Notes: generated from the letters alone by a model not told the origin. A DNA stretch of 64,000 nt from Alphaproteobacteria bacterium (GCA_021208265.1 JAJOJU010000004.1:34688-98687); one strand, 5' to 3'. Numbered from the stretch's first letter, positions 10,669 to 64,000 are shown. Made by a program: numbers and translations.

Positions 10669-10767
10669 GACATAGTCTCCTTAAATCTCAGGATGCTCGT
10701 GACACAACCTTACAGGGAAAATGAAGCTTCGTACAGGCGCGTTCTTTTTTGCGGCGCAAAATGAAGT

Positions 10768-12508: not shown

Positions 12509-12565
12509 GAAGCCGGATTTTTGTGTTTGCACTTGTTGGCATAAAGTTCTAATTTCGAGCCAAGT

Positions 12566-12645
12566 TAACCTTGGCGGTGCTTCGTAAGAAGCTGAGATAA
12601 GACGCCTCGAACCTGTGGGCTAATACCTGCGCAGGGAAAGGAAAG
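12566..12645 (+). promoter_or_regulatory. TPP (THI-box) riboswitch; its 3' P1 strand overlaps the Shine-Dalgarno of the ORF at 12649
   Basis: CCUUGGCGGUGC-UUCGUAAGAAG-CUGAGAUAAGACGCC-UCGAACCUGUGGGCUAAUACCUGCGCAGGGAAAGG contains the conserved GGxGUGC, CUGAGA, ACGCC (pairs with GGCG), GAACCUG, AAUACC and GCxxAGGGAA blocks in the canonical order. AAGGAAAG is the RBS, ending 5 nt before the ATG. Confidence 0.8.
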
Positions 12646-12648
12646 ACA

Positions 12649-12984: not shown

Positions 12985-13007
12985 ATTCGACCTGAAAGCA
13001 CAAAACC

Positions 13008-13412: not shown

Positions 13413-13427
13413 ACCGGGAGAGTAACC

Positions 13428-15211
<1,784 letters not shown>

Positions 15212-43830: not shown

Positions 43831-45279
43831 TTAGGGAACCGGGTTAAGCTCCGGCTCTAAAATATCAGGCTGCTGCCCTTCCAGATGCGGGCTTTGAAAA
43901 CCCAGATTATGGAGCGCCCGATGAATATCGGGTGACTTCATAAATAAATCCCACAAAAGGCCGGAGCGGTGATTTTCAATCATAACCACGATTGGTCCCT
44001 GATCAATCGCCAGATGCCCACTGGCTTGCCAGTCTTCCGTCTCGTTAAAAGCATCAACAAAGCCGTAGGCGCTCCAGATTTTATCACCATGATCTTCATA
44101 AAAATGCCGCAAAGCGCGCATCGATTCTTCGGGCGTATAGGGGAAGGATGAAAGCGCCGCCGTAGGGGTAATCACACCTAAATCATGTGTAGGGGCATGG
44201 GCGCTGTAACCCCGGTGATTATCACTTGCCGTAAACCCCCAGCACTGCGGGCCATAGCCTTCATAGTCATGAGGGTTGGTAAGCGCATGAGCATAATTGA
44301 TAAGTGTATGATTACGGTTTTGCTGCCAGTAATCGGCATAACGATCGTTCAGCCCCCTCGGGTCCAGCCCCAGAAATGAATAATGCGCGAGGAAAAGCGC
44401 CCCGCCTTTTTCCATGCCGAGCGGCAAGGTAATGCCGTCATAAGAACGGCCATTCCGCATATCACCGTTTCTGGCCCAACCCTGATGATACACTTCCGCC
44501 GAAATGGGATGAGTCGGTGATGCTGCCGCCAATACATAGGTAATAAGGGCTTCATTCCAGCCGCTAACCGGCATGCTCATCTGCCAGTCATGGTTAGGGC
44601 TCCAATGCCAGTAGAGACGGTTTTCACCTTTCGTATACCAATCCCATTCAACAGCCTCCCACAGCTTTGTAATTTTTTGCTGCAACTCCGCTTCTAGAGG
44701 AGAATGATCAGAAAGATACTCCCGCGCCGCTAATAACCCTGCCATCAGGAATGATGTTTCAACAAGATCACCACCATCATCATGGCGGGAGAACGGCATT
44801 ATCCGGCCTGTGCGTCCATCCATCCAGTGCGGAAAAGCCCCATGGAATGTATCGGCCTGTTCTAAAAAATTTACAATGCGGCCAAGGCGTTCCCGAAATT
44901 CCACGCGGGTTATCCAGCCGCGTTCCGCCCCGGCGATCATCGCCATAATACCAAAACCTGTGCCGCCCACAGTCACAACATGCTGCCCGCCCTCATAGGA
45001 ATGATTGCTGCGTTCCCGCGCCATACCGCTTACGGGATGAGCATAATCAGTAAAGTAACGAAGGGTCTGACGCTGCACAAGATCCAGAAGCTGTTCATCA
45101 CTCAAGCCTCTTATAATCTGTGCAGAATTTTCTGACATAGCAAACTGGTTGATAACAGGCGCAGCGGTTACATCAGAATGCATAATAGAAGCAGCAGAAA
45201 AAATGCTGCATAAGCCTAAAATTATGCCCATTTTTGCAGAATTTTTTGCAAGCCTCGCCCGCGTGTAAGCCCCGCCCAT
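43831..45279 (-). CDS. Secreted GH144-like protein (PF10091 'glucoamylase-like', endo-beta-1,2-glucanase family)
   Basis: Start set at MGGAYTRARLAKNSAKMGIILGLCSIFSAASIM, with a GGAGGA RBS ending 7 nt upstream and a signal peptide. LLDLVQRQTLRYFTDYAHPVSGMARERSN, GGTGFGIMAMIAGAERGW and HGAFPHWMDGRTG are, as I recall, typical of this family. Confidence 0.65.
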   Translation of the reverse strand: MGGAYTRARLAKNSAKMGIILGLCSIFSAASIMHSDVTAAPVINQFAMSENSAQIIRGLSDEQLLDLVQRQTLRYFTDYAHPVSGMARERSNHSYEGGQHVVTVGGTGFGIMAMIAGAERGWITRVEFRERLGRIVNFLEQADTFHGAFPHWMDGRTGRIMPFSRHDDGGDLVETSFLMAGLLAAREYLSDHSPLEAELQQKITKLWEAVEWDWYTKGENRLYWHWSPNHDWQMSMPVSGWNEALITYVLAAASPTHPISAEVYHQGWARNGDMRNGRSYDGITLPLGMEKGGALFLAHYSFLGLDPRGLNDRYADYWQQNRNHTLINYAHALTNPHDYEGYGPQCWGFTASDNHRGYSAHAPTHDLGVITPTAALSSFPYTPEESMRALRHFYEDHGDKIWSAYGFVDAFNETEDWQASGHLAIDQGPIVVMIENHRSGLLWDLFMKSPDIHRALHNLGFQSPHLEGQQPDILEPELNPVP

Positions 45280-45452
45280 ATTGTATCCTCCCCTTATATT
45301 TATAATTGAAGCCAGTATGGAAAAAATGCTGCGGTGCTGCAAGACAAAAGGTTGTATTTTTGATCTGCCTGTTATTAACTGAAACACAACAGGGACGCTA
45401 TCAGGCTGACAGATCGTGTACATAAATCCAGATATAAAAATCATAAGGACCG

Positions 45453-46373
45453 ATGCCCGCCGGAAAAAACAAATTTTATGCCGTATCGGCTATTTTTTTA
45501 CTCGTTACAGGAAATGTTATGGCTGAGCCGATAACACCACGCGATATTTATAACGGTCAGGCAGCAAAGATGCCTGCCTGCCAAACTTATGTATTCGGCG
45601 AAACAGAAGATGCTGACAAACATATGTCTGTGCTGGTCTATAAACCTGCGCAATCGGACTCACAAAAACTGGCTTTTGTACATCATGGTCGCAACGGCAA
45701 GGCCGATGCCCCGCATATGTTGCCTGTGATCAAGGCTTACTTGCGGCAAGGCTATACGGTTATTGCTCCCAACGCTCGTTATTCTGCTGCTAATGACAGC
45801 GCAGGCGAAGCACGTGATTTTACCATCAGCGCCCATACGGAAGATCTGGCTCGCAGTATTGAATGGGCCAAAAGTAACACAGAAATTTTAGGATGGGATG
45901 GCATCAGCTTTGCCCTTGCCGGACACAGTATGGGCGCTTATGCGGCAACATATCTGGCAGCAACCGATTATAAAGATAACACTGAACATGTTCTGGCAAT
46001 ATCGCCCTTCACCAGTGGAGAACGGCAAATTGAAGCACGCCGCAGTCACCCGAACGGCATCGAATTTTTGCAACGGGAATTACCGCAAGCCATGGCAGAG
46101 TGGCCCACGCACGATATCTTCACCGTCATTGATAATCTCACCATGCCGGTATCGGTATTGGTGGGGGAGATTGATAATATTACGCCATCTTATTTCGTGG
46201 CTGATTTTTATAACCGCCTGCCCAACCCCGGCACAATGGAGATCGTTAAAGGGCAGCATCATTGCATCATCAATAATGATTTTTCGCGTGTCGTGGAAAA
46301 CCATCTTACAGGGATGAATAATATAGCTGTTGCGCAGGCGAATGAGGTTCCCGATGCCAAGCCCGAGCTCTGA
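45453..46373 (+). CDS. Secreted alpha/beta-hydrolase (esterase/lipase-like)
   Basis: Signal peptide. Nucleophile elbow GHSMGA. Length and layout fit an alpha/beta fold. Confidence 0.7.
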   Translation: MPAGKNKFYAVSAIFLLVTGNVMAEPITPRDIYNGQAAKMPACQTYVFGETEDADKHMSVLVYKPAQSDSQKLAFVHHGRNGKADAPHMLPVIKAYLRQGYTVIAPNARYSAANDSAGEARDFTISAHTEDLARSIEWAKSNTEILGWDGISFALAGHSMGAYAATYLAATDYKDNTEHVLAISPFTSGERQIEARRSHPNGIEFLQRELPQAMAEWPTHDIFTVIDNLTMPVSVLVGEIDNITPSYFVADFYNRLPNPGTMEIVKGQHHCIINNDFSRVVENHLTGMNNIAVAQANEVPDAKPEL

Positions 46374-47699
46374 TCTTGGTAGTTGGATTGTCTTGCAAAA
46401 AGAGCGCAGCAAAAATTATCTGGCGGCAGCTGTTTCCGCAAACTCTCTCTCTCACGAACGATCTGTATTTGGACAGCGTGTGATGCCCATAGAAGGATCG
46501 GTTCTTGCATCGCCCGTATCCGCCCATTGGAACCCGGAACCCGATTATTTTTATCACTGGACACGCGATGCGGCAATTGTCATGGAAAACATCATCCCTC
46601 TATGCAAGGGCATGGATGGCGCCGCATGGCGCGCACATTTTCAGGATTATATTACCTTCAGCTTAAAAACTCTGGCGATTGATGGTAAATCTTTTTCTCC
46701 TAACCCTCTCACAGATAAGACCCCAAAAAACTATCTGCAATATGTGCGCCCGGCGGAAGAACTTAGCAAGTTGAACCGCGATGCTTTGATGGGAGAACCG
46801 CGCTTTAACCCTGATGCCACACCTGATTTACAAAAATGGGCACGCCCGCAATATGACGGTCCGGCGCTGCGGGCGATGACATGCCTTCATTATTTAGAGG
46901 AAACCGCCACAGAAAAATGGAGCCTACCGAAAGGGCTGGAAAATTTACTGATGCTGGATCTGGATTTCACAGCCCGCCATTCCGGAATGCCCTGCATCGG
47001 CCCGTGGGAAGAAGATAACGAGTTTTCTCATCATTATTTCACGGGCGTTGTGCAGCTGGGTGCACTTCAAAAAGGTTCGAAGTGGGCCGCAGGGAATGGC
47101 TATGACAACCTCGCTACGCGCTGTAAAGATGCGGCACATATTTTGGAAGCATCGCTCGATCAACATTGGTCACAAGAACACCGTACCTATAAGGCAATAC
47201 TCGAAAAACCCTTGATAAATGCAGAAGACGGCTTTGATGCCGCTATTTTAATGGGTGTGCTGCACACAGGCCGTGAGAATGGACGGCATAGCATTCACGA
47301 TGAGCGCCTGCACACCACCGTGCAGCATATGGAAGATTATTTTGCAAAAGCTATCCCGTTAATCACGGGCATGATACCCCTGTTATCGGACGCAGCAAGA
47401 GCGATCAATATTTTGGCAATAATCCGTGGTTCCCCACCAGCCTTGCCTTGACGGAATATTACTATGCGCGGGGGGAAATAACAAAAGGCGACAAGCTCTT
47501 GGAACGGCTTCGCGAAGTTACGCCGGATGATGGATCACTCTCCGAACAATTCGACAGAGCCAACGGCAACGCCGTTTCCGCCCGCCACTTAACATGGAGC
47601 TACGCTGCCTTTCTAAGCGCAGCCCGCGCGCGGGAAGAAGCGCTAACAAAGCAGAAACCTGCCGTTACACCGGCGCTTGATCCGGGCCATCCATCATAG
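46354..47699 (+). pseudogene. GH15 glycoside hydrolase (glucoamylase/glucodextranase-like, catalytic domain only), one frame break
   Basis: PDYFYHWTRDAAIVM and GPWEE. The frame break at about 47346-47350 restores ...SYPVNHGHDTPVIGRSKSDQYFGNNPWFPTSLALTEYYYARG. The exact start is uncertain (46330 or 46354). Confidence 0.8.
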
Positions 47700-48947
47700 A
47701 AATTTCAGGAGCATAAGGCGTTTCAAACTCCAAGATTTTAAGGCCTTCTTTTACTTCCGGGCAGCTCATGAACAAACGCCATAAAAGACCGGAGCGGTAA
47801 TTTTCAATCATCCCCACTATCGGGCCTTGATCAATCGCCAGATAGCTTTTGGCAACCCACCCGGCTGATTCATTAAAAGCATCCTTAAACCCATATTCAC
47901 CCCAGATTTTATTTCCCAGCGTGCCATAAAAATAACGCAAGGCCTTCATTGATTCTTCGGGCGTATAGGGGAAAGATGAAAGGGCCGCCGTTGGCGTAAT
48001 CACCCCGTGATCGTTCGTGGGGGAATGGGCATTATAGCCTTCATGATTATCGCTGGCGGTAAGCCCCCAGCATTCATCGCCATACCCTTTAAAACCGCCG
48101 GGGTTTTCTACGCAATGCGCATGATTAATCAACGCATGATGACGGTTCTGCTGCCAGTAATCGGCATGCTCATCTTTCAGCCCGCGCGGTCTAACCCCAA
48201 GAAAGAATAATGCGTAAAGAAGAGCGGGCCGCCCTTTTCAGGCCCCAGCGGCAATTCACGTTCGTGATAGGTATTGCCGTTTTTAAATTCAACCCCCGTC
48301 AACCAGCTGGCTTCATAGGCTTTGCGGCCTGTACCGTGTATGGGTGATGACGCCGCCAGAACATGGGTGATCAAACATTCGTTCCAACCCATAATGCCGA
48401 GATTATTATCACTCCAGGGGTGATTGGGGCTCCAATGCCACATCAGCTTGTTGTTATCGGGACGCATATATTTATCCCACTCCACCTTCTCCCACATCGT
48501 GTTAATGCGGACAGCAAGAGCCGGATGAGTATCCTTAAAATACTGCCGGGCAGTTAACAGCCCCATCATCAGGAATGATGTTTCAACGAGATCGCCGCCG
48601 TCATCCTTCTCTGAAAACGGGATAACCTTGCCCGTGCGCCCGTCCATAAAATGCGAAAAAGCGCCGTGGAACTGATCGGCTTTTTCCAAAAACGACACGA
48701 TTTTTTCCACTCTTTGTGCCACATCGTCTTTCGCAATAAAGCCACGCTCGGCCCCCGCAATCATCGCCATGATGCCAAAGCCCGTACCACCTGTGGTAAC
48801 GGTGTGTTCAGGATCGTAATGATAACTGCCCGTGCTGCGCTCCCGCGCCATGCCGCTTACGGGGTGACCAAAATCCCAGAAATATTTAAGGGTCTGGCTT
48901 TGTACAAGATCCAGTAATTCAGCATCGCTTAATGGTTTATCCGTCAT
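47665..48947 (-). pseudogene. Cytoplasmic GH144-like paralogue (no signal peptide), one frame break
   Basis: ORFs 48177-48947 and 47665-48132 join near 48189 (FLGLDPRGLKDEHADYWQQNRHHALINHAHC). Same motifs as 43831-45279. It begins 1 nt after the GH3 stop. Confidence 0.65.
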
Positions 48948-48948
48948 A

Positions 48949-51297
48949 TTATTTTACCTCCGGGGCCAGTGTTGCTTCAGGGGCAGGCTGTTTAGCCCAG
49001 TTCACGCGCAAGGTTTGCAGGTCGCGGCTGTTAGGCCCCACCATGATATCAAACGCGCCGCCTTCCCAGTCATAAGTGTAATCTGAAATTGTGCGCGCGT
49101 TATAAAATTTGAGATCATCCGGTGTGATGCGGAAGGTTACGCTGCGTTCCTCACCCGGCTCCAGCTTCACTTTCTGGAATCCTTTCAGCTCCAGAACAGG
49201 GCGGGAGATGGAAGCCACCAGGTCGCGGATATAAAGCTGCGGTGTTTCCTCACCGGCGCGCGCGCCTGTATTTTTGAGTGTGAAACTGATCTCCAGAACA
49301 TCACCTTCGCCTGCCAGCTGCGTTTTGTTTACCTGCGGCGCGCTATAGGAAAAATCAGTATAGCTAAGGCCGTACCCTGCCGGGTAAAGCGGCGTATGCG
49401 GCCCTTCAATGATGCAGGATGTCGTAAATTTCTGGAAGATACGGTTGCCTTTTTCATTCACTTCCTGATCACCGTCAGCCTGCGCCGGGGCGTTTCCTGC
49501 CGGGCGGCCTGTCGGCAGCTGTTCGGTTTTCAGCGGCAGCTGGCCCACATGACGCGGGAAGGCGACACTAAGGCGCGCCGAAGGATTGGCATCGCCAAAC
49601 AGAATATCAGCAATACCGTTTCCGGCTTCCGTACCGGGATGCCATGCCTGCAAAATGGCATCGGCATGCTGCGCTTCATGGGTGAGCGCCAAGGGCCGCC
49701 CGCTCATGGTTACAAGAATAAGTTTCTTGCCTGATTTTTTGGCATACTTCGCCATGGTATCAAACAGCGGACGTTGATCTTGCGGGATCGTGATATCCTG
49801 ACGCGTTGCCGCCTCGCCTGCATGCTCTTTCGCCTCACCCAAGCAAAGCACAATCGTGTCTGATTTTTTAGCGATCTTGAGCGCTTCCTTGATCATTTTT
49901 TCAGGACTGCGTTCATCGATGGAGGCCGGTTTATCATGCGGGTTAAACACATTAAGGCGCGCCGCCACATTGGGGTCGTTCACGATATTGGCGCCCTTGG
50001 CATGCAGAACGCGGCTACCCTTCCCCAAGGCATTTTGCATACCTTCCAGCAAAGTGATGCTGGTTTCAGGTTCTGCCGCCACAGACCATGTGCCTTGCAT
50101 ATTGATTTTGCTATCCGCTAGCGGGCCGATCAGCGCGATGGTTTTCCCGTCTTTTTTCAACGGCAGAGCGCTGTTTTTATTTTCCAGCAGCACGCAGGAT
50201 TTTGCTACAGCTTCCCGCGCCAGTGCCCGGTGTTCGGGTGTGAGTGTCACACTTTTTCTAAGCGCCTCATTCATGCCCATGAAGGGGTCGGCAAAAAGGC
50301 CCAGCTTATATTTGGCTTCCAGAACGCGGCGGCAGGCGGTGTCAATTTCCTCCTCGCTCACTTTTCCTTCCGCCACCAGCTCAGGCAGATAACGCATAAA
50401 GCCTTCACTCACCATGTCGGTTGTGATCCCGGTTTTGAAAGAAAGGTAACTGGCTTCTTTCAAATCTTCGACAACGGCGTGATTAACAACCTCCAGAATG
50501 GCGGTAAAATCGGTAACGGCGAGGCCGTCAAAACGCCAGTCTTTTCGCAGCACATCGTGCAGCAATTCCTGATGCACTGTGGCGGGAATATTGTTGATGG
50601 TGTTGAAGGAAACCATCAAACTGCCCACCCCGGCATCCACCGCCGCCTTGAACGGCACCATAATGGAATGAAGGCTAGAGGGCGACACCTCAACACTGCC
50701 GTAATCACGGGCGGAAAGGCCATAGCCCGCGAAGTGTTTCACCGTTGCCATCACGCGGTCGGGCCGCGCCATATCGTTATCCGGCCCTTGATAGCCGCGC
50801 ACCATGGCTTCGGCAATGCGGGCGCCCAGATAAGGGAATTCACCGTTACCTTCCGAAATACGGCCCCAACGCGCATCGTAACAAACATCCACCATCGGCG
50901 ACCAGTTAAGGGAGATACCTTCCGCCCGCGCTTCCCGCGCTGCCATCACAGCCGTGCGCTCGATCAAATCCGTATCCCACGAACAGGAAAGCCCCAGCGG
51001 AATGGGTAGCAATGTTTTATGCCCGTGAATAACATCCACGCCAAACATAAGGGGAATTTTGTTAGGCCCTTCATTCACCGCAATTTCCTGCATCTTGATG
51101 CGCGCCTCTAAATTCGGCTCCACAGTACTGCCTACTTCACCACGGCGAATGCGCACAGGCATATCAACCGCTTTGGCAATCCCGGTTGTATCCATGCCCT
51201 CGGACGGAGGATGATTAAGCTGACCGATTTTTTCCTTGAGAGTCATCTTGCTCATCAGATCGTCAATAAAACGGTTCATATCGGTTGTATCGGTCAT
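48949..51297 (-). CDS. GH3 beta-glucosidase (BglX-like), no signal peptide
   Basis: 782 aa. N-terminus MTLKEKIGQL. The catalytic-nucleophile region is GLAVTDF. A C-terminal fibronectin-like region is present. Confidence 0.88.
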   Translation of the reverse strand: MTDTTDMNRFIDDLMSKMTLKEKIGQLNHPPSEGMDTTGIAKAVDMPVRIRRGEVGSTVEPNLEARIKMQEIAVNEGPNKIPLMFGVDVIHGHKTLLPIPLGLSCSWDTDLIERTAVMAAREARAEGISLNWSPMVDVCYDARWGRISEGNGEFPYLGARIAEAMVRGYQGPDNDMARPDRVMATVKHFAGYGLSARDYGSVEVSPSSLHSIMVPFKAAVDAGVGSLMVSFNTINNIPATVHQELLHDVLRKDWRFDGLAVTDFTAILEVVNHAVVEDLKEASYLSFKTGITTDMVSEGFMRYLPELVAEGKVSEEEIDTACRRVLEAKYKLGLFADPFMGMNEALRKSVTLTPEHRALAREAVAKSCVLLENKNSALPLKKDGKTIALIGPLADSKINMQGTWSVAAEPETSITLLEGMQNALGKGSRVLHAKGANIVNDPNVAARLNVFNPHDKPASIDERSPEKMIKEALKIAKKSDTIVLCLGEAKEHAGEAATRQDITIPQDQRPLFDTMAKYAKKSGKKLILVTMSGRPLALTHEAQHADAILQAWHPGTEAGNGIADILFGDANPSARLSVAFPRHVGQLPLKTEQLPTGRPAGNAPAQADGDQEVNEKGNRIFQKFTTSCIIEGPHTPLYPAGYGLSYTDFSYSAPQVNKTQLAGEGDVLEISFTLKNTGARAGEETPQLYIRDLVASISRPVLELKGFQKVKLEPGEERSVTFRITPDDLKFYNARTISDYTYDWEGGAFDIMVGPNSRDLQTLRVNWAKQPAPEATLAPEVK

Positions 51298-51315
51298 AGT
51301 GGTTACTCCTTTACG

Positions 51316-53269
51316 TTATAAAAGTGTGGGCTGCCAATCGCTCTCCATCGGCGGCGGCAGGGGAAAAACAGGTTTCATCACGGCAGTGCCACCCTCTTCA
51401 AACTGTAAAACCGTGTCGTAAAACGGTTTCCCCTCGCGCGTGGAAGGCAGGTCCTCATCATGCAAGATGCTGATCACTGTGGCATCAGGGCAGTTCTCTT
51501 TCAACAGTTCGTGGAACAGTAATTTAGCTTCAGGGTCCAAAGCTGAAAATGCTTCATCCAGCAGAATAATATCGGGCTTTGCCAACAAGATGCGCGCCAG
51601 CACAAGGCGCTGTTTTTGCCCGCCGGAAAGAACATCTTCCCAGCGCTTGCCCTTATAATATTCTTCATGCAGATGGGTGATAAACTGGCCCAAGCCAACC
51701 TTACTTAAAACATCCGCCACATCGATATCGGAATATGTTTCTTCATCCTTGGAACCTGCCACCAGCTGCTTGAAATTGGTCTGCGTCAGCTTGATTTCCT
51801 GACAGGCATAAAAGGGAAGCGAATGTTCCGGGAAGCTGATATGCCCGCGCCCGTAAGGCCATTGCCCCACCAGCGATTTAATGAATGACGTTTTACCGCA
51901 GCCTGAAGGCCTTTCAGGCGGACCCACTGCCCCGGCTCAAAATGAATGTCATGCATGGTCACAAAGGCTTCCGCATCATGCCTTCATGCATTAAGGCCAG
52001 GTCTTTTACAGTCAGCCCCGTATCCGGTAGACTGACAGAATACTCAAATTCGGAAATACCGCTTTGCTTATAAAAGGCGCGCGCATCCTGCACCTTTTCA
52101 ACGGCTTCAGCCACTTCAATAATACGGTTGGAATTGGCACGCAAACTGGCAATGGCCGGCATCACATTAATCAGCCACGAACAATCACGAATGAATTCAC
52201 CGACCAGTTCCGCCGATGTTGCGTAATCCTTCAAGCTGATTGATTTTTGCATGTAGGCAGGCGCCGCCACCATATAAGAAAAAATACGGCTGGAAAATTC
52301 GTTGTAAAAATTATTTGTGCCCATGAAAACCGCATTAACGCCGTTTTGTTTATGCCAGGTTTTATCAACAGTGCCGTAGAGGTGCTTGTTGATTTTCTTT
52401 TGAACAGATTCCCCGGCAGAAGCAGAAATTTGAGCAGCGCGGCGCAGAAGCGTTGTTAATTCAGCGCGGAATGTGCCTTCGGCTTTTTGCATGGCGACAT
52501 CCAGTTTTTCCAGCACTCTGCCAATTTTATAAAACCCGTATGTCAGCACCGGAACATATAAAGCGCTGGCCCCGAATGTAATGGCAAGGCTGCCATAATT
52601 ACCCAGAAAATCGAGACCCTGAATAGGCTGCGAAATTTCGGCCAGCTTCATCATGACCAGCACGGATGATGTGACTACACCAAAAATCCCCATCGCCAGC
52701 CCTATACCGCCGCCAGTCATACTGCGTATGGATTCCTGCCAGCGTTGATCGATATTATCAGGCATCGCCTGTAAAGATGGCGAGCATGACTCTTCCGCGC
52801 CCCGGTTGGACTGAAGATGAAGCAATGTATGGCGGTCATTCAAAATGGCTTCGTTAAATTTTCCCGTCAAAAACCCGCGCCATTTACGGTGAAGCGTTTG
52901 AGAGAAAAAATGACGTGTGGCAATCAAACCGATTTTAAGAGCCACAGCCCCGCACAATAATTTGGCGCTATCGGAAAATTGCCCCGCCGGATCAAGGTTT
53001 TCCGGGTTGTGATAGGTGGAATAAGCATGCAAAAAACTTCCGGCTGACTCAGCAACCCATATACCGCTTTGGCTGATGGCATAGGTGAAGGCTGCTACCA
53101 GAAGTGAATACCCCCAGGCTTCTTTCCACTGTTCCGATGTCCAGAAAGAGGAGAGCATGCCCTTAAAGGTACGCATGCCTGATACAGGCGTGCTGAGGGA
53201 TGTGCCGCTGGCCAGTTGCTGGCGCAAAGCGGGCGGTAAAGCCGAAGTTACCTTGTTTTCTTGTGACAT
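51316..53269 (-). pseudogene. Fused ABC transporter (SbmA/BacA-like TMD plus ABCD/YddA-like NBD), two frame breaks
   Basis: After correction near 51960 and 51908 the NBD reads ...VTMHDIHFEPGQWVRLKGPSGCGKTSFIKSLVGQWPYGRG (Walker A), LSGGQKQRL (signature) and IILLDEAFSALD (Walker B). The TMD part starts at MSQENKV (53269). Confidence 0.65.
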
Positions 53270-53397
53270 CCCTGAGTATTCGCGGCTTTTAGCCTTATAT
53301 TTATGGATGCCGAAACGATAGTGTCCACAGAGCCGCTTGACAACCCGCCAGCTGTGCTGCAAGCGCGAAGATGCATATTAAATTCAGAGATTTTATA

Positions 53398-54620
53398 CTA
53401 GAATTCTGTGCTTTCGAGCCATGCCATCATTCGGTGCGCTGCATAAACAGCTGTGGACATTGTAGCCTGTAAAAGATAGCCACCCGTTGGGGCTTCCCAA
53501 TCTAACATCTCACCTGCGATAAAAACGCCTGGTTTACCGGCCAGCATGTAGTTCTGATCGAGAGACTCAAACCTGATCCCGCCGGCAGTTGAGATGGCAC
53601 GCTCTAATGAAAACGCTTCATACAGCCTGACCGGACAGGATTTGATAAGCCGTGCCAGCTCCGCGGGTTTATAGTCTCCCAATATTTTACGGTCAGGATG
53701 TTCCATCAAAAGCCCGGTTGCTAAAGGGGAAAAGTTAAGAGCCTTTCTCAGAAAATTCGAAAATGTATCGCGTCCGCGCGGTTTTTTAAGGCGGCTTTCT
53801 ATGGCATCCAATGTAAGATCCGGTTTTAAATCAAGTTCCAGAAAAACAGAATCGGAACTTCGCAATGCCTGTCTTAGCACGGAAGACAGAGCATAAATCG
53901 CGCTGCCCTCAATACCTTTTTCCGTGATCATGATTTCGCTTTTGATTTTGGTGCCCTTGAAAGCCGCGATAACGGGCTTTAAGGGGTGACCGGAAAATTT
54001 TTGACGAAAGATGTCAGACCATTCTACGGCAAAACCACAATTCGCTGGTTCCAATGGTGATATATCTATGCCTTCCGCCTTCAAAATCTGAGCCCATGAT
54101 CCATCGGAACCCAGACGCGGCCATGAAGCCCCCCCTAAAGCCAGCAGGGTTGCATCCGCCTTGAATGTGGTGTTTCCTGACGCTGTCTTAAAAATCAGGC
54201 TATCGCCCTGCCAGCCTTGCCAGTCATGCCCCATCATCAAACTAACACCTTGCTGCCGAAGCGCGCCAGCCACGCACGCAACAACGGCGAGGCCTTAAAG
54301 CTTTCCGGAAATACCCTGCCACTGCTTCCGATAAAAGTCTTTTCTCCCAGGCCATCACACCAATTGCGTAAACTCTGCGGCGAAAACTCCTGAAGCGGTT
54401 TTTTCAGGACATCAGCCCGGTCTCTATATTTTTCCAGAAAACTATCCCAAGGCTCCGAATGTGTCAGGTTAAGGCCGCCGCGACCCGCCATCAGAAATTT
54501 TCGTGCAGGCGAGGGCTTGCGTTCAAACACAGTAACTGAAAAACCACTCTGGGCAGAGATAATCTCCGCAGCCATCAAACCCGCAGGCCCGCCGCCGATG
54601 ATCGCAATATTTTTACTCAT
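53398..54620 (-). pseudogene. BaiN/RdsA (HI0933-like, TIGR03862-type) NAD(P)/FAD-dependent flavoprotein, one frame break
   Basis: MSKNIAIIGGGPAGLMAAE Rossmann motif. ORFs 54237-54620 and 53398-54273 join near 54260 (AWLARLRQQGVSLMMG). Confidence 0.75.
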
Positions 54621-54940
54621 GCCAATTTCTTTAATTCAAAATAGAAGAAGATATTACACTGCATGAGTACATACAGGCAATTCCATCAGATAATTGAATT
54701 GTATGAACTAATAAAAAACAGGCATCACTTAAAACACTGAATTCAAATACAAGAAAGGCAAGCCAGCACAGCTGGTTAGCTGCCGGGCATCGTCATACTC
54801 ATCGAAGACAGTTAAGTATGTCTTAGGACTTTTATTTTATAAAAGTTTGAATAATCCGATAATTTGTTCTCTCTTTCAAATTTCTTAAATAGCAGGTAAT
54901 TTGTGTCATAAGTCTAGGGAGGCTTTTTCAAGCACATCAT

Positions 54941-56650
54941 TTGAGCCGGTTATCTCATTTTTCAGCGATTCTTTGTCTGTGCGCGGTCTCCTGCCCCGCT
55001 CATGCTCAAATGGCTTTGGGACCGGCTGACCCCGCCCGTATTGACCGGCGCTTGCATACGCCTGACAAGGACTGGCAAAACCTGGAACCCGAAGAGCGCC
55101 CCGGCCAAGCCGTACCTGTTTTACCCGAAGGCTCGGACAACGTTATTTTCACTCTGAACAGTCTTACCATTGAAGGTATGAGCGCCTACACCGAGGAAGA
55201 GGTAGCAGGCTTCTACACCTCCTATATCGGTCAGGAAATCGCTCTTTCAACGCTGTTTGATATCATGGCCACCCTTCAGCAGAAATATCTGGAAGATGGC
55301 TACACCATCACCAAGGTTTTCATCCCCAACCAAAGCATTGAAAGCGGCGCGGCAAAGCTGGTGGTTGTGGAGGGGTATGTGGCAGAGATTGATATCGACC
55401 CTGCTATCCTGCCGGCCCCCATTATTGCCGACACAAAACGGCTAATATTGGCTATGCACCCCTTAAATATGCTGGAATTAGAGCGACTTATCCTTCTCCT
55501 GAATGATTTGCCTGATTTGAATGTCAGCGCTGTTCTGGCAAAACTTACCCCTGATGCGCCTGAAGCCATACCCTCCGGTGCGGTGCGCCTCAGGCTACAG
55601 AAAAACCCGGAAAAATATTCTTACGGCGAAGCCTCGTTTGATAACTACGGCTCTGTCTTCCTTGGCCCCTATGAGGTTAGCCTCACAGCACGCGCGCCCC
55701 ATATAGGCCCCAATTATAGCGAACTCACTGGCTCAACCGTTTTTACCACGTCAGCCAATGAACAAAAATATGGCTATCTGCAATACGACATGCCCCTATT
55801 CGGAGCTTCGGGTACCACATTATCCCTAGCAGCATCCTACGCCGTAACCAACCCCGGAGATGAGCTTAAAACGCTTGAAATTGAAGGTAATTCAAAAAGT
55901 TTAATAGCTAATATTAGCCATTATTTAATCCGGCAAAGGGATGAATCTTTAGCCATCAGCGCTTCTTTTGAATTCAAAAATTCCGAGACAGATATCTTGC
56001 AGCAGGATCTTTACAACGATCGCCAACGCATCCTGACCACCGAAGTGAATTACGGTTTTTCTGACAGCTGGGATGGTTTGAACGTCATCGATTTTCAATA
56101 CGGCAAGGGTCTCGATATTTGGGGAACGCGTGAAGCCGGTTCTGAGAATTTATCGCGGCTGGACGGGCATCCTGATTTTGACAAATTCAATCTGTTTTTA
56201 GCCCGCCTGCAAAACCTGCCCTATGATCTGGGGCTATATACATCCCTGCGCGGGCAATATTCCGCCAAGCCGCTTTTATCGTCTGAAGAGATGAGCTTCG
56301 GCGGACGCTCGTTAGGGAGAGGGTATAACCCCGCCGAAATCACAGGTGATCGCGGTATTGCGGCCAGCGCTGAATTGCGTTTGAACAACGCTGCCCATCT
56401 GGCAGGGCTGGATATCCAGCTCCAGCATTATGCGTTTTACGATGTAGGCAAGCTCTGGAATATCGACAATAACGACACCATCGGCATATCAGCTGCCTCA
56501 GCCGGTTTGGGAACCCGTTTTTTTGAAGGCGATAGCTGGAGCGGTGATATCAATCTGGCCTTCCCCTTAACGCGCGAGCCTGAAAACGCGCCCTCTTATG
56601 CCGAAAATTTCGGCCCGCGCCTGCTGTTCTCGGTAAGCCACAAATTTTAG
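54941..56650 (+). CDS. Two-partner-secretion outer-membrane transporter TpsB (ShlB/FhaC/HecB family)
   Basis: 569 aa. A signal peptide, a POTRA-like N-terminal region, and a C-terminal beta-barrel ending ...LLFSVSHKF. It lies directly upstream of a TPS-domain protein. The TTG start is as in the ORF track and is uncertain. Confidence 0.85.
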   Translation: MSRLSHFSAILCLCAVSCPAHAQMALGPADPARIDRRLHTPDKDWQNLEPEERPGQAVPVLPEGSDNVIFTLNSLTIEGMSAYTEEEVAGFYTSYIGQEIALSTLFDIMATLQQKYLEDGYTITKVFIPNQSIESGAAKLVVVEGYVAEIDIDPAILPAPIIADTKRLILAMHPLNMLELERLILLLNDLPDLNVSAVLAKLTPDAPEAIPSGAVRLRLQKNPEKYSYGEASFDNYGSVFLGPYEVSLTARAPHIGPNYSELTGSTVFTTSANEQKYGYLQYDMPLFGASGTTLSLAASYAVTNPGDELKTLEIEGNSKSLIANISHYLIRQRDESLAISASFEFKNSETDILQQDLYNDRQRILTTEVNYGFSDSWDGLNVIDFQYGKGLDIWGTREAGSENLSRLDGHPDFDKFNLFLARLQNLPYDLGLYTSLRGQYSAKPLLSSEEMSFGGRSLGRGYNPAEITGDRGIAASAELRLNNAAHLAGLDIQLQHYAFYDVGKLWNIDNNDTIGISAASAGLGTRFFEGDSWSGDINLAFPLTREPENAPSYAENFGPRLLFSVSHKF

Positions 56651-58349
56651 ATATTTGCCCCTCATTGTATGTTATAATTAACCACAGAACACAAAATGAG
56701 TCAGGGCTCCGTCCTTTCTTGCCGACTCTTTGCAGCGGTTGCTTTAGTTGCAATCCTCGTTGGAATACCATTGCATGTGTGGGCCGGGCCGGAAGGCGGA
56801 CAAGTCACAGGCGGGTCAGCCTCCATCCAGCAGGATGGTTCCACCACCACCATCAATCAATCATCGAGCCGCGCCATCATAAAATGGAGCAAATTTGATC
56901 TGGATGCTTCTGATCATGTGAAATTCCAGCAACCGGGACGCAGTTCCATTACGGTTAACCGGATTACCGATTCCAAGGCTTCCCGCATTAATGGAAAAAT
57001 CAGCGCCAACGGCAATATCGTTCTCATAAACCCTAACGGCATGGTGTTTGGCTCCACCGCCGTGGTGGATGTCGGCGGACTTGTTGCCACCACGAGCGAC
57101 CTGAAAGATGACGATGCGTTTTTGGCTGGCGGAAAAATGGAATTCACGAAACCCGGCAAACCGGATGCCCGCATCATCAACAATGGAAAAATCACAGCCA
57201 AGGATGCCGGGCTTGTCGGCCTCATCGCCCCGCATGTTGAAAACCACGGCGTTATTCAGGCAAAGCTCGGCAAAGTGCAATTGGCCTCCGGCGACATTCA
57301 CACGATCGATTTTGCGGGTGACGGGCTGATCAAGCTTGAAGTATCGGCAGACGTCCTTGCGCAATCCGTCACCAACACAGGCACGATTGAAGCTGATGGC
57401 GGACAGGTTTTACTAACAACCGCTCAAGCCCGGCATATCGTAGAATCCCTCATCACTAATACAGGCACCATCCGCGCCAATACCGTAAATGGCAAAAAAG
57501 GATCGATCAAAATCTCAACTAAAGGCTTGGAAGATAACCTTAAAAAAGGCAACGGCACCATCATCAACACAGGTGCGCTGATCGCCGAAGCCGTGCGGGA
57601 CAATAATATTTCTGCAGATCAACCATCATCCTCTCCCGTCATGAACGCGCTCGGCGGCGACATAACCTTACTGGCTGAATCAATTCAGCTGGGTGATGGT
57701 TCGGTGGTAAGCGCTACCGGCGATCATGGCGGCGGCATGATCCGCATCGGCGGGGATTATCAGGGCGGCAATAACGTGCCGACATCTGATTATATTTTTG
57801 TATCGCAACAAGCCATTTTGAATGCCAGTTCCCGCCGTTACGGCAAGGGTGGCACGATCATCCTGTGGTCTGATGAGAATACCGTTTTCTACGGCAATGC
57901 CTATGCCACGGGCGGAAATGAAGGCGGTGATGGCGGGCTAATCGAAGTATCCGGCAAGAATACCCTAACCTTCGAAGGGCATATTGATCTGCGTGCACCT
58001 CATGGTAAGAAAGGTGTCCTGCTGCTTGATCCAACCAACATCACAATCTCCTCCGGCGTTGATGCCGCTGTTACGGGTTCATCCCCCTTCACGCCGAATG
58101 CCGATAACGCCACATCCGTTTTGAACGCCACCACGCTTTTGAACGCGCTGGCAAACGGGAATGTGATTGTGCAAACACGAGCCACAGGCGCGCAAACAGG
58201 CAATATAACCGTTGATGCCGCGCTAAGCTGGAATAGCGGCAGCACGTTAACACTGGATGCCCACGCCAATATCATCGTCAATCAAGCCATTAACGGCGGC
58301 GGCCTCACCCTGATCGCCGGAACGGACGTGCAGCTAAACGCCAATATCG

Positions 58350-61300
58350 GTGGCACGGGCGCGCTCACCATGCAAGCCGCAGCGGATGGCACAACGATGG
58401 GGATCGGTGCCAGCGCCGTGGGCGTGTTTAACCTCAACACCACGGACCTTCCCTTCATTCAGGATGGCTGGTCTGACATCATCATAGGCCGCAGCACAGG
58501 CACAGGTGCCATTGATATTCGTGCCACTACATGGAGCGATAATCTGACTCTGCAAACAGGCAGCGGCACAATCAACATCAACGGTATCGTTAATACAGGT
58601 GCTAATAACCTTACCTTCATGACCGATGGTAATATAAACCTCGCCGTCGCAAACGGCATGAGCGGTTCCGGCACCTTAACCCTTATGCAACAAACAGCCT
58701 CCGCCGCCGTGGGGGATGAGCAGCGCGGCAGGTGCTATCAACCTTAACAATACCGAAATCGGACGCATCGCCGATGGTTGGTCGCAGATCAATATCGGCC
58801 GCGCCGATGGTTCCGGCACCATGACATTCGGCACATCATCCGCCACGTGGAAAGATAATGTTACCATTAATTCCGGCACAGGCGCGCTTATCGTAAGCGG
58901 CGCACAAACCTTTGGCGCGAATGCCGTCAACATTGTTACAGATGGCGATATCAGCTTGAACGTTACCAACGCGCTTTATGCGGCAGGCGGCACGCTTGCC
59001 ATCACACAGCGCAGCCCCGGCACATCGATTGGTCTGGGCGATTCACAAGCGGGCGATATCACCTTAAGCACCCTTGAGCTCACCCGCCTGCGTGATGGTT
59101 TTACGCAGATTACCATCGGGCGCACAGATGGAACAGCTGATCTGAACATCGGGAACAGCACCTTTACCGACCCCATCACCATTCAAACCGGATCAGGAAA
59201 AATCAACTTAAATACAGGCACGCTGACGACATCCACCAACGCTCTGGTACTAAGCACAAACGGGGCGGATATAACGATAGGCAGCACCATTTCACAAAGC
59301 TCCGGCGCGCTGACATTAAGCAGCGCAGGCGGCGCGATTAATATCAATTCCAGCATCACCGGTACCACCACCGGCACATGGAATTTCGATAGCGCAAACG
59401 GTGCTTTAACGGTCAGCGGTAACATCACCAAAACAGGCGGAACTGTGAATTTTAGCTCCGGCACGGGCGCGCTTATCATCAATAATGCGCTTAGCTTCGG
59501 GGCCGCTGCCAGCAATTTCACAACAAGCGGCGCGGCAGGCATCATCCTTCATAATACCTTATCTGCCAGCACCGGTGCCGTTACCATGAACACGGCGGGC
59601 GGTAATATCACTCTTAATAATGCGCTTAATTTCACCAGCACAGGCGCGCTGAATTTGAACAGCAATGGCGGTTCGATCACCACGCAAGGCATCACGCAAA
59701 CCACAGGCGCCACATCGATTAATTCAGGCGGCGGGCTTTTAACAATCGGCGGAACACTTACCAAAACAGGCGGTACAACCACAATCGACAGCGGCACCGG
59801 TCAGCTTACCTTGAACACAGTTACGCTGGGTGCCGGCAGTTTATCACTGATCACAGATTCCGATATCACCCTCAATGGTAACCTGAACGGTACCGGCACC
59901 TTCAGTTTGGCAGCCGCTAGCGACAATGTTTCCATGGCCGTCGGCACAGGCGAAACAGGTACAATTCTTGTCGATGATGATGAATTTTCACGCATTCTGG
60001 ACGGCTGGTCAAGCCGCACATTGGGCCGGACGGATAGCACGGCAACACTTAATGTAAAAGGCGGCCTTGATTGGTTGGATACGCTTATCCTGCAAACCGG
60101 CTCAGGCACAATAAGCTTGAACGGCGCGCAAACTTTTAATGCCAACAGCTTCACCATACGCACCGATGCCGATATCAATTTTGGCGGCAATCTATCCGGC
60201 ACAGGCACAGTAAACCTTACCTATTCTTCCCCCGGCACCAGCCTGGGTATTGGTGATGGACAAGCCGGAACCATCAGCTTATCCGATGCCGATCTTGCGC
60301 TGTTTCTGAACGGATGGGGCAGCCGGATTTTCGGGCGCACCGATGCCACAGGTGATATTAATATCGGCGCCATCACATGGGTTGATCCGGTTACCTTGCG
60401 AACAGGCAGCGGCCAGATCAATGTCAACGGCCCCATAGTCATGACCGGCGGAAATGCGCTCACCTTCAGCACGGATTCTGATCTTACTATCGGCGCGAAC
60501 GTCACGGGCAGCGGCTCCGGCGCCACGCTTACTATTGTCGGATCATCTGCCGCCACCACCATCGGTATCGGTGATGGACAAGCCGGTATGCTGCAACTGG
60601 ATAACACAGAATTAAGCCGTTTTGGTTCCACGTGGACAGTATTATTATCGGCTCCACTACCGCCACCGGGGAAATGAACGTGGGCGGCCGCACGTGGTCT
60701 CGATCCCCTTACACTACGTACCGGTACCGGCCAAATGAATATCAACGGCAATATCGTAATGGGCGGCAACAATCTTGCCCTTAGTACGGATTCTGATCTC
60801 GCCCTGAATGGCACCTTAAGCGGCACGGGTTCTCTGACGATTTCACCTGTATTAAGCACCACTGCCATCGGCCTTGGCAACGGGCAAGGGGGTGATCTGG
60901 TTTTAGATGATACCGAACTTGACCTCATTCTAAACGGCTTTAACGCCATCACCATCGGCTCTACTGCCAGCGCGGCCTCAATGAACGTTGGGGCCAGAAC
61001 ATGGAATGATCATGTAACATTACGGACAGGCAGCGGCGCGCTTAATATCAACGGCGCACAAAATACACAAACCAATAATCTGACGCTGACAACCAATTCC
61101 AATATTGCGATCAATGATATTTTGAGCGGTACAGGCACGCTTACCATTTCAGGTTCATCCAGTGCCACCAGCATCGGTGTAGGCACGGGCCAAAGCGGCA
61201 CCTTGTCGTTAAGCGACGGCGAACTCGATAATATCGCCACCGGATGGACCAGCGTTATTATCGGCACCACCAGCGTTACGGGCGCCATGAATATTGCAGG

Positions 61301-62600
61301 CCGTACATGGAATAACCCTATGGAATTTCGTACCAATACCGGCGCTCTCAATATCAACGGCGCACAAAATCTGGGCACCAATAACCTGACGATCCGTACC
61401 GCGACAGATCTTTCGATCAGCCAGATTCTGGCAGGAACCGGCACACTGACCATCATGAATTCCCAAACCGGGGCCGGCAACACCATGGCCATCGGCACCT
61501 CACAAACAGGGCAATTAAAACTGACGGATGCCGAGCTGGCCTTCTTCGCCGATCAGGGATGGTCAACCCTTTCCTTTGGTAACACGGGCTCCACAGGCGC
61601 TATCAATATCGATGCCAAAAGCTGGAATGCGAACGTGTTATTCCGCAATAGCACGGGCGGCATAAATATCAACGGTGCCCAAACACTCTCCGCCGGGAAA
61701 AATCTGACCATCACCTCAAACGGCGACATTGCGATTAATCAGGCGCTTAATGGTTCCGGCACACTCACACTGGGAGCGACAAGCGCCACAATCAGCATGG
61801 GTGTGGGTGACGGTGGCAGCGAGGCGGTGTTGATCAGCAATACCGAACTGGCCCGCATTTCCAGCGGCTGGAATGAGCTGGTATTCGGCATGACAGGTAC
61901 CACTACCAGCACTTACGGCACGCTCAATATCCGGAATTATGCATGGAATAATAACGTAAAAATACTGAACAATCTTCAACCAATAAATATCGCGGGCGCC
62001 ACGATGGGCACAAAAAACCTTACCATCACCACCAACGGCACGCTCAACATAAACGGTAATTTGAACGGCAGCGGCATCCTCACCATTGCACCGCAAGCTG
62101 TGGCAACGACAATCGGTGTCGGCGGGACGGGAACGCTTAATCTGACAGAAGCTGAAATGCAAAGATTTGTCGATGGCTGGAGCAGCATTGTTATCGGCCG
62201 AACAGACGGCACAGGCACCATGAACGTAGCCGCCCGCACATGGAATGACAATGTCACGCTTATAACAGGCACAGGCGCGATGAATATTTCCGGTGCCACA
62301 ATGGGGTCTAATAATCTTACCCTCATCACCAATTCCAATCTTGCCATCAACGGCAATATTACAGGCACCGGCAACCTTAAAATCAGAACAGCGAGCGGGC
62401 TGACAGGTATCGGGGTGGGTGACCTGCAAACCGGAACTCTGGCGCTTTCCAACGCTGAGCTGGCACGCATTGTTGATGGCTGGAACAACGTGACGATAGG
62501 CGATGCCGCCATGTTCGGCGCTATCAATATCGGGGCCTATAACTGGGTTGATCCCATGGTATTTGTTGCTCAGGGCAATATCGTTATCAACGGCGCGCAA
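58350..62600 (+). repeat. 12 divergent coding modules of about 105-110 aa inside TpsA
   Basis: The recurring pattern is IG.G.GQ.G.L.L...EL..I..GW....IGRTD.TG..N[IV]....W.D...L.TG.G.IN.NGAQ...NNLT..T..D...N..L.GTG.LT. I counted 12 [DNTSQ]G[WF]-type cores, the sixth (FGSTWT) falling at a frame break. A non-modular insert lies at about 59180-59900. Confidence 0.7.
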
Positions 62601-62849
62601 ACCACAACGGAAACATCGGGCACCACGCTTGTATATGCCACCACAGGCGGTGCCTTTATCAACAATGCCGGGGTCAGCGCGATTGATCCGAATACCGGAC
62701 GCTATCTTGTTTACTCCGTTGCCAGCGCCAGTGATACCCTGGGTGGGCTTACTCCGCTCACCATCGTGAATGATGAAAGCTTTACCAGCTATGCTCCGGC
62801 TGATGTCGTGGAAGCCGGAAACGTGTTTATCTATTCCGGCCTTGCCGCC

Positions 62850-64000
62850 AAAATCCTGTTCCTCGTAATTGATGATAAGGACAAAGTTTACGGCGATGCC
62901 AATCCCGCCTTTACCTATAGCTATCTCGGCGGCCTGCAAGGCAGCGATACGCTGGCAGATGTTGTGTTAACTGCCAATCTATCCGCGGCAGGCTCCACCG
63001 TTCTGGATGATGCGGGGGTTACACGCACCATCACGGGCGTATTTACAGCCGGGCTGGGCTATATCATTAATGTGATCGATGGCGTTCTCACCGTTGTTAA
63101 AGCAACGCTGACCGTTACAGCTGATTCCGATACACGAATCTATGGTAACGCCAATCCGGGGTTAGGCCTCACCTATAGCGGCTTTAAAAACGGCAATGAT
63201 GAGACGGATCTGGATACCGAAGCCAGCGTTTCCACACTGGCTGATGCTTTCTCGAATGTCGGAACCTACGCCATTACCGCCTCCGGCGCAGCTGATGATA
63301 ATTACGACTTTATATATGTGGACGGCACACTTAGCATTACCAAAGCCACCTTAACCGCCACCACACAAAACGCCACGCGTGAATATGGCGAGGCCAACCC
63401 AGCCATGAATATCGTTTATACAGGCTTTAAAAACGGGGAAACATCAGCCGTAATTGATACGCTCGCCACAGCATCCAGCGTGGCAAACGCGACATCAAAT
63501 GTCGGCAACTACGCCATTACCGGCACCGGCGCGATCGATAACAACTATAACTTTATCTACGCGAATACAGGAATTTTAAGCGTTACCAAAGCCACCTTAA
63601 CTGCCACCACACAAAATGCCACGCGTGAATATGGCGATGCCAATCCTGCTTTAAGCGTGGTCTATACAGGCTTTAAAAAACAGCGAAACATCAGCCGTAA
63701 TTGATACACTGGCCAGTGCCTCCACTATCGCCACACAAGCATCCAATGTAGGGCTATACAGCATCACAGCCACAGGCGCGACCGATAACAACTATAATTT
63801 CACTTACGTGAACAGCGGCAATCTGGACATTACAAAAGCCGCCATCACTGTACAGATCGAGGATAAATCCCGCATCTACGGCGAAGCAAATCCCGCCTTC
63901 ACACTCAGCTATAGTGGCTTTAAAAATGGCCAGGATTCTTCCGTATTCACCGCGCAAGCTACGGCTTCCAGCACGGCTGATGTATTTTCAAATGCCGGAA
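62850..64000 (+). repeat. Tandem MBG (YGX-type) domain repeats, about 246-nt period, continuing beyond the window
   Basis: Five units begin ...K[AV].[LI]TV/A... and contain [VIE]YG[DNE]ANP. The units starting at 63342 and 63588 share a near-identical first ~60 nt (AAAGCCACCTTAAC[CT]GCCACCACACAAAA[CT]GCCACGCGTGAATATGGCGA). Confidence 0.75.

Follow-up and report, generated by a model that had tools for sequence, protein, structure and literature searches.

We analysed a stretch of 64,000 nt (hereafter, the window) from the genome of an Alphaproteobacteria bacterium (GCA_021208265.1, JAJOJU010000004.1:34688-98687). Positions 43,831-53,269 of the window contain six genes that encode two homologues of endo-beta-1,2-glucanases of glycoside hydrolase (GH) family 144, a serine alpha/beta-hydrolase, a GH15 enzyme, a GH3 beta-glucosidase and an ATP-binding cassette (ABC) transporter. 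On balance, these genes probably form an intact catabolic locus for beta-1,2-glucans that are not made by the cell itself. The family of each gene is supported by open reading frame (ORF) calls and Pfam matches. The locus and its nearest upstream neighbour are organized as follows.

43831-45279, minus strand: GH144a, predicted exported endo-beta-1,2-glucanase homologue (PF10091, 7e-78; 482 aa)
45280-45452: intergenic region of 173 nt from which GH144a and the hydrolase-GH15 pair diverge
45453-46373, plus strand: predicted exported serine alpha/beta-hydrolase (PF00561 and related families; 306 aa)
46354-47699, plus strand: GH15, catalytic domain only, without signal peptide (PF00723, 2e-38; 448 aa from the ATG at 46354, 452 aa from the ATG at 46342)
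47665-48947, minus strand: GH144b, predicted cytoplasmic endo-beta-1,2-glucanase homologue, without signal peptide (PF10091, 8e-78; 427 aa)
48949-51297, minus strand: GH3 beta-glucosidase of the BglX type, without signal peptide (PF00933, PF01915 and PF14310; 782 aa; frame intact in the window)
51316-53269, minus strand: ABC transporter with fused transmembrane (TMD) and nucleotide-binding (NBD) domains, ABC_membrane_2 family, Rv1819c-like (PF06472 and PF00005; 651 aa)
53398-54620, minus strand: flavoprotein of the TIGR03862 family, same-strand upstream neighbour of the ABC gene (TIGR03862, 1e-145; 407 aa when intact)

The ABC, GH3 and GH144b genes form a compact unit on the minus strand, with 18 nt between the ABC stop codon and the GH3 start codon and 1 nt between the GH3 stop codon and the GH144b start codon. 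On the plus strand, the start of GH15 overlaps the end of the hydrolase gene by 20 nt. GH15 and GH144b converge and overlap by 35 nt. The same layout, including the minus-strand unit, had been described in an earlier note made from the sequence alone, and both the ORFs and the Pfam matches agree with it. The divergent region 45280-45452 presumably holds promoters for both sides. A scan of the locus for promoters and terminators gave counts near those expected by chance, and no control elements or transcription units were defined.

Three of the six genes have frame breaks in the window, four in total: GH15 at 47350, GH144b at 48187, and the ABC gene at 51907 and 51979. The flavoprotein gene is one base short at 54260. 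Independent assemblies of the same strain were found by exact-protein look-ups among Logan and NCBI contigs. The sister Logan contig SRR12390700_1637 (L098) aligns with window positions 44158-61292 over 17,145 columns without a mismatch; the only differences are 11 gaps, each one or two bases long. No gene is broken in this contig, the lengths being 407 aa for the flavoprotein, 782 aa for GH3, 427 aa for GH144b, 452 aa for GH15, 306 aa for the hydrolase, and, for the ABC transporter, 651 aa counted from the ATG at window position 53269 (the gene call gives 682 aa). Compared with this contig, one base (C or G) is missing from the window copy of GH15 at 47350-47351. In GH144b the window has CC at 48187 where CCC is expected, one C being missing, and the ABC gene lacks one base at each of its two breaks. 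Contigs from SRR12390694 and SRR12390697 each restore one break, a different one in each case. In the contig JAJOID010000021.1 (L099) of an NCBI metagenome-assembled genome (MAG), GH144b and GH15 are intact and the breaks lie elsewhere, including an extra C within GH144a. Since the differences are indels only, mostly in runs of two or three bases, and vary between assemblies, the breaks in the window are technical errors of assembly and not signs of pseudogenes. So many breaks in one locus, in a small genome (1.80 Mb in 53 contigs) with an estimated completeness of 79%, could also mean that the genome is shrinking and the locus decaying, with GH15, GH144b and the ABC gene reduced to pseudogenes. 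However, this is hardly credible given a sister contig that differs over 17 kb by 11 indels and no substitution and has every gene intact; moreover, most breaks are shortened runs of identical bases, and neither an in-frame stop codon nor a larger deletion was seen.

Both GH144 paralogues score high with PF10091 (261.6 bits for GH144a and 261.3 bits for GH144b, cut-off 27) and are 63% identical to each other. GH144a aligns with the Chitinophaga enzyme CpSGL (5GZH, 5e-158, residues 51-467) and with Bacteroides homologues (up to 6e-163, 4GL3); no relative of it exceeds 67% identity. Both proteins are approximately 55-63% identical to CpSGL-like enzymes. The general acid of CpSGL is E211, the enzyme is inactive when D135, D139 or E142 is mutated, and E211, F268 and Y330 are the clan-defining residues (PMC12102758). 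All these residues are kept in both paralogues: CpSGL D135, D139, E142, E211, F268, Y330 and D400 correspond to D167, D171, E174, E243, F296, Y358 and D426 of GH144a, and the respective catalytic residues of GH144b are D115, D119, E122, E190, F243, Y305 and D373. Judging by these alignments, both proteins are GH144 endo-beta-1,2-glucanase homologues, as the earlier note had proposed.

The two paralogues differ in their N-termini. From the ATG at 45279, GH144a begins with MGGAYTRARLAKNSAK-MGIILGLCSIFSAASIM-HSDVTAAP, that is, a basic stretch and a 17-residue hydrophobic core (12-residue hydropathy peak of 2.33) followed by HSDVTA/AP. A strong Shine-Dalgarno sequence (AAGGGGAGGA) lies 7 nt before this ATG, and no such sequence precedes either of the two in-frame ATGs further on. 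The signal peptide depends on this choice of the start codon: the database gene call (450 aa) starts at the third in-frame ATG, 45183 (residue 33), so that the signal peptide is lost. No signal peptides were found in GH144b, GH3, GH15 and the flavoprotein. Thus the pair of one secreted and one signal-less GH144, claimed in the earlier note, is retained with the start at 45279. In the maximum likelihood tree, the signal-less GH144 enzymes including GH144b form one clade (support 93/95, just below the star threshold of the tool), GH144a is sister to this clade (97/92), and the secreted enzymes of Bacteroidota fall in a separate clade. On contigs assigned to Janthinobacterium lividum MAGs, the GH144 genes fall within the Hymenobacter clade on very short branches, and one contig binned as Williamsia groups with Mucilaginibacter (all among L007, L133 and L152); these contigs are probably mis-binned.

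The GH3 protein has a three-domain architecture and scores 752 bits with the NCBIfam equivalog BglX, NF011678 (cut-off 666); together with the lack of a detected signal peptide, this bears out its description as a signal-less beta-glucosidase. The best solved relatives are JMB19063 (3U48, 1e-224), BT_3567 (5XXL, 3e-198) and Lin1840 (2e-133), with Pseudomonas BglX also among the best. The nucleophile is D263. This residue, F264, R598 and F624 align with D261, Y262, R587 and F598 of JMB19063, and F264, R598 and F624 are the equivalents of Lin1840 W271, R572 and Y583, the +1 subsite residues that bind sophorose (PMC4757417).

The intact copy of GH15 matches PF00723 (2e-38) almost completely (profile positions 21-426 of 427), and its nearest solved structures are the fungal glucoamylase catalytic domains 3EQA and 1AGM (approximately 1e-31). 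The motifs WTRD, RPQ.DGPALRA, WEE (E223) and SEQ (E402) are kept. WEE and SEQ were aligned to 3EQA, with E223 falling on the first Glu of the glucoamylase WEE motif; we take the two Glu residues to be the counterparts of catalytic E179 and E400 of Aspergillus niger glucoamylase. At 448-452 aa the protein consists of the catalytic domain only, as the earlier note had seen, and lacks the N-terminal beta-sandwich domain usual in bacterial GH15; this domain is not family-defining, so the membership stands. By its motifs the protein looks like an exo-alpha-glucosidase. The conserved alpha-glucosidase active site, and the presence of GH15 in four of six gene cassettes including that of the window (see below), led us to the conjecture that it strips alpha-1,6-linked glucose from alpha-closed cyclic glucans.

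The alpha/beta-hydrolase carries the signal peptide MPAGKNKFYAVSAIFLLVTGNVMA/EP, ending in VMA/EP. Its family is small (267 representatives among 1.84 billion). Ser159 of the GHSMG motif is conserved in at least 90% of 32 family members, and Asp241, His270 and Gly79 of the HG motif are invariant; the secreted GHSMGA hydrolase of the earlier note thus has both a signal peptide and a Ser-Asp-His triad. The family profile matches cinnamoyl, feruloyl and chlorogenate esterases and an MHETase-like enzyme (1e-19 to 2e-24), and the protein is probably a carboxylesterase. It had been suggested to act on succinyl or phosphoglycerol decorations. Removal of O-succinyl or O-acetyl groups is plausible for a carboxylesterase-like family, whereas action on phosphoglycerol, which is linked by a phosphodiester, is not supported.

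The transporter matches PF06472 (39.6 bits, cut-off 24.4) and PF00005 (69.8 bits). No match to PF05992 (SbmA/BacA) was obtained, even with the threshold relaxed to E <= 1. The best solved structure is Rv1819c (6TQE, 4e-26), aligned from residue 170 onward, from the PDNIDQR motif to the NBD. The ATPase motifs are Walker A GPSGCGKT, signature LSGGQKQR and Walker B ILLDEA. Hence the SbmA/BacA type assigned earlier has to be replaced by the ABC_membrane_2/Rv1819c family. ABC genes that do match PF05992 occupy the same cassette position in four other loci (L109, L193, L194 and L278). No orthologue of the window transporter was found in 40 other genomes of the order, the best match being 35% identical.

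A PF06472-type ABC gene next to signal-less GH144 and GH3 was observed in five other lineages, three of which also have GH15. The most complete case is Hartmannibacter diazotrophicus (LT960614.1), where all five cassette genes have the order and orientation of the window, with ABC, GH3 and GH144 on one strand and the GH15-hydrolase pair converging on them (identities: ABC 47%, GH3 46%, GH144 63%, GH15 47%, hydrolase 41%). All proteins of this cassette, including the hydrolase, lack signal peptides, and there is no second GH144 in it. Thus the lineage of the window has two exported parts beyond the Hartmannibacter cassette, namely a second GH144 with a signal peptide and the signal peptide of the hydrolase. 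In a MAG labelled Micavibrio sp. (GCA_028290825.1), GH15 adjoins the ABC, GH3 and GH144 genes, the ABC protein being just 25% identical to that of the window. In two alphaproteobacterial genomes (G129 and G220) a PF06472/PF05992 ABC gene lies directly upstream of signal-less GH144, and GH3 is divergent. The Logan contig SRR22387849_396728 (L278, positions 1281-10851) contains GH15, GH3, a two-gene PF06472 transporter with separate TMD and ATPase, and GH144, directly beside the genes for phosphoglucose isomerase (PGI) and glucokinase; this adjacency fits release of glucose in the cytoplasm.

The cassette ABC proteins are 23-47% identical to that of the window, and thus divergent members of the PF06472 family hold the same position; two ABC lineages that occupy it are approximately 25% identical to each other. 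The ABC-GH3-GH144 unit is not a chance neighbourhood. The transporter gene is tied to the glucan genes, as had been assumed, by its co-orientation with GH3 18 nt downstream and by the linkage in the other lineages. Pairing of these enzymes with a transporter of this type had been called unusual. This is true with respect to the literature, but it is not a peculiarity of one genome, since the cassette recurs.

GH144 was found in five of 400 sampled genomes of the class. PF10091 was found in none of the genomes of 24 other genera of the family, and among 16 other genomes of the order it occurs in one, G038, within a 2900-aa frame that also contains a GH94 domain. A pattern-based contig search with GH144b yielded almost only Bacteroidota, and the alphaproteobacterial cases came from the protein database and from the class-level genome search. 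The ABC, GH15 and hydrolase genes occur in none of the 80 genome loci fetched with the GH144b query, nearly all of them from Bacteroidota. In another MAG labelled Micavibrio sp. (GCA_007693615.1; L111, positions 7747-13799), the gene after GH3 and signal-less GH144 encodes an MscS-type mechanosensitive channel, and the ABC gene is lacking; here beta-1,2-glucan enzymes are linked with an osmotic-stress gene.

From the gene content, the intact frames, the families and their catalytic residues, the presence or absence of signal peptides and the recurrence of the cassette, we infer which glucan is used and where it comes from, in which direction it is transported, how the steps follow one another, and what GH15 and the esterase contribute. 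Exported GH144a and the exported carboxylesterase would act outside the cytoplasm on beta-1,2-glucans, periplasmic or cyclic, that prey or neighbours have released, and would cut and de-acylate them. The PF06472 transporter would carry the oligomers across the inner membrane. In the cytoplasm, GH144b would convert them to sophoro-oligosaccharides and GH3 would convert these to glucose. GH15 would take off alpha-linked glucose, possibly at the single alpha-1,6 link of cyclic glucans of the Xanthomonas, Ralstonia or Rhodobacter type. A cytoplasmic endo-glucanase makes sense only if oligomers long enough for it are imported. CpSGL needs a degree of polymerization (DP) of 5 or more. Rv1819c has a large water-filled cavity and carries hydrophilic solutes of 1-4 kDa; by analogy, such a cavity would suit a cargo of long oligomers. 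The role of the window transporter as an inward carrier of sophoro-oligosaccharides (Sopn) or cyclic glucan is suggested by the gene neighbourhood. The in silico tests set beforehand (family assignment, gene neighbourhood, glucan synthesis genes) were run, and none refuted the utilization of beta-1,2-glucans proposed in the earlier note, a function predicted from these data.

Several observations weigh against this scheme. That the organism is a predator is an assumption drawn from its relatedness to MAGs that bear the name Micavibrio: its GroEL shares 88% and 83% identity with those of MAGs labelled Micavibrio sp. and 74% with that of a MAG labelled M. aeruginosavorus, a species that is an obligate epibiotic predator (PMC3189940). 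The other kinship marker, fbaA, had only 53-59% matches in mixed phyla, and GroEL was used instead. The Sec signal peptide marks export to the periplasm, not release from the cell, and no outer-membrane uptake component was found in the locus. As GH15 enzymes act on alpha-glucosides, what GH15 does in the breakdown of a beta-glucan is a guess. Export is the usual direction for transporters of this fold, and bidirectional transport is reported for mycobacterial BacA (PMC10960864). Finally, gene absences in this genome, when taken alone, carry little weight. Glucokinase, ROK kinases and PGI (PF00342) were not found in this assembly; PGI is present in 25 of 25 relatives, and thus the assembly lacks part of the genome.

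The last point matters for the source of the glucan. Neither OpgG nor GH94/Cgs was found in the genome of the window, where cgs was sought through its GH94 domain. The absence of OpgG does not depend on the incomplete assembly alone, since a search of 41 genomes of the order, of which 37 have a completeness of at least 90%, found no OpgG. GH94 within the order was found in one relative only, G038, in the PF10091-bearing frame mentioned above (G038:C3:601482-605882). This combination of domains is as expected of a cyclic glucan synthase, and given G038 the order is not uniformly free of glucan synthesis. One possibility is that the locus recycles the periplasmic glucans of the cell itself, e.g. 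after an osmotic upshift. Indeed, H. diazotrophicus, G129, G220 and one more genome, G049, all have OpgG/OpgD homologues and none has a GH94/Cgs domain, and the signal-less Hartmannibacter proteins fit import and internal breakdown of the cell's own osmoregulated periplasmic glucans; in these free-living carriers the cassette could well serve such recycling. For the window, however, we find it quite improbable, in view of the missing OpgG and GH94/Cgs, the near absence of synthesis genes from the order and the two exported enzymes gained by this lineage. Between harvest and recycling, both considered in the earlier note, harvest is favoured: the substrate would be a foreign glucan, because there is no OpgG in the order and because an exported GH144 and an exported hydrolase have been added to the cassette seen in Hartmannibacter.

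Another possibility concerns the transporter. The enzymes may degrade beta-1,2-glucan while the ABC protein exports something or carries an unrelated hydrophilic solute (a peptide or a cobalamin-like compound), the oligosaccharides entering by another route. This agrees with the prevalence of exporters in the fold and with the known substrates of Rv1819c, BacA and BclA, which are cobalamin, bleomycin and peptides, not sugars; no carbohydrate substrate for this family was found in the literature. The closest homologues of the window transporter (P0002 and P0003, 47-49% identity) also occur in contexts without GH3 or GH144. On the other hand, PF06472 transporters stand directly beside signal-less GH144 and GH3 in six lineages including the window, despite their low mutual similarity, with gaps of 18 nt and 1 nt here. 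Cytoplasmic glycosidases need an import route, and no other transporter is present in these loci; in particular, no second sugar importer was found by the ORF and Pfam survey of the window locus. We therefore consider a transporter unconnected with glucan import unlikely. That the GH144 name is misleading and the true substrate is some other glycan (beta-1,3-glucan, laminarin oligomers or a glucoside, for instance) is highly improbable. GH3 enzymes of the Lin1840 type are about equally active on laminaribiose and sophorose (PMC4757417), one GH144 member (5Z06) is a sophorohydrolase and not an endo-glucanase, and GH15 is an alpha-glucosidase family. However, both GH144 proteins are 55-60% identical to enzymes near CpSGL and keep all catalytic and clan-defining residues, and the characterized GH144 enzymes that we found in the literature all act on beta-1,2-glucans or beta-1,2-gluco-oligosaccharides.

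A bolder scenario may be offered tentatively, although we rather doubt it: in a Micavibrio-like predator, a cassette that had served the internal recycling of glucan might have been redirected to the harvest of prey. A signal peptide on the esterase and an exported GH144 would allow the osmoregulated or cyclic beta-1,2-glucans of the prey to be stripped and cut, oligomers of DP 5 or more would be imported through an Rv1819c-type transporter, and GH15 would clip the alpha-1,6-linked glucose of alpha-closed cyclic glucans. If true, this would provide the first carbohydrate substrate for the Rv1819c-type family and a new role for GH15. In a probable bacterial predator, it would mark the periplasmic glucan of the prey as a nutrient. 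More generally, beta-1,2-glucans serve many Gram-negative bacteria in symbiosis, virulence and osmoprotection, and the uptake of these glucans by other organisms is barely known. The conserved link of Rv1819c/BacA-type transporters with cytoplasmic GH144, GH3 and GH15 suggests a testable natural substrate for a puzzling family, and both GH15 and the small esterase family may have new specificities. The hypothesis can be tested directly, because the cultivable H. diazotrophicus carries the same cassette.

The flavoprotein gene is separated from the ABC start codon by 128 nt, and it is not part of the cassette in Hartmannibacter or in the other carriers examined; that it belongs to the ABC-GH3-GH144b unit is doubtful. 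Beyond it, a 320-nt AT-rich spacer is followed, in divergent orientation, by the genes of a two-partner secretion system (54941-64000), tpsB and a tpsA of giant size. If the organism is a predator, the glucan locus adjoins an adhesin/exoprotein system. Of the further indels between the window and L098, those at 54632 and 54646 are intergenic, whereas those at 58711, 60635 and 60701 fall within tpsA; at 58711 and at 60701 it is the window that has one additional base. Orthologues of fbaA and of the flavoprotein are present in relatives but far apart, and gave no usable synteny for the ends of the island.

Pairs of GH144 and GH3 are known in utilization clusters of Chitinophaga and Bacteroides. 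The window GH144 proteins resemble CpSGL (Cpin_6279), the founding member of the family, at approximately 55-63% identity with all catalytic residues kept, and in the Hymenobacter loci the GH3 neighbour is 46-49% identical to that of the window. In contrast, the GH144 enzymes of Bacteroidota have signal peptides, form a clade of their own, and are not accompanied by the transporter, GH15 or hydrolase in the fetched loci. The Listeria innocua locus lin1839-1843 also combines an ABC importer with a cytoplasmic GH3, which belongs to the clade of the window enzyme and has the same Arg in the +1 subsite (PMC4757417, PMC3960220), but that importer depends on a binding protein, a GH94 phosphorylase stands in place of GH144, and there is no endo-glucanase, GH15 or esterase.

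A close parallel is the Chloroflexus aurantiacus cluster Chy400_4165-4178 (PMC13731917). It encodes a cytosolic GH3 and two GH144 enzymes, of which one carries a signal peptide and the other does not, and cyclic glucans are imported whole. The pathway proposed for it follows the same logic as here: beta-1,2-glucans are cleaved extracellularly, large or cyclic ones are taken up, and degradation proceeds in the cytosol. However, uptake in Chloroflexus is by type I ABC importers with the solute-binding protein Chy400_4166, which binds cyclic glucans, whereas the window has a fused PF06472 transporter and no binding protein; the partner enzymes are GH94 and GH35 in Chloroflexus, and GH15 and an esterase in the window. 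According to PMC13731917 (2026), only type I binding-protein-dependent importers and the Brucella exporter have been studied for beta-1,2-glucans, and no link from BacA/Rv1819c-type transporters, GH15 or this esterase family to these glucans was found in the literature. The window transporter shares with Rv1819c, mycobacterial BacA and BclA the PF06472 TMD fused to an NBD, in a family that imports bulky hydrophilic solutes, but its similarity to Rv1819c is remote (4e-26), detectable from residue 170 onward only, with no PF05992 match. Thus clusters for the utilization of beta-1,2-glucans were already known, and what is new here is the combination of an exported GH144 and an exported esterase with a PF06472 ABC cassette in a Micavibrio-like host.

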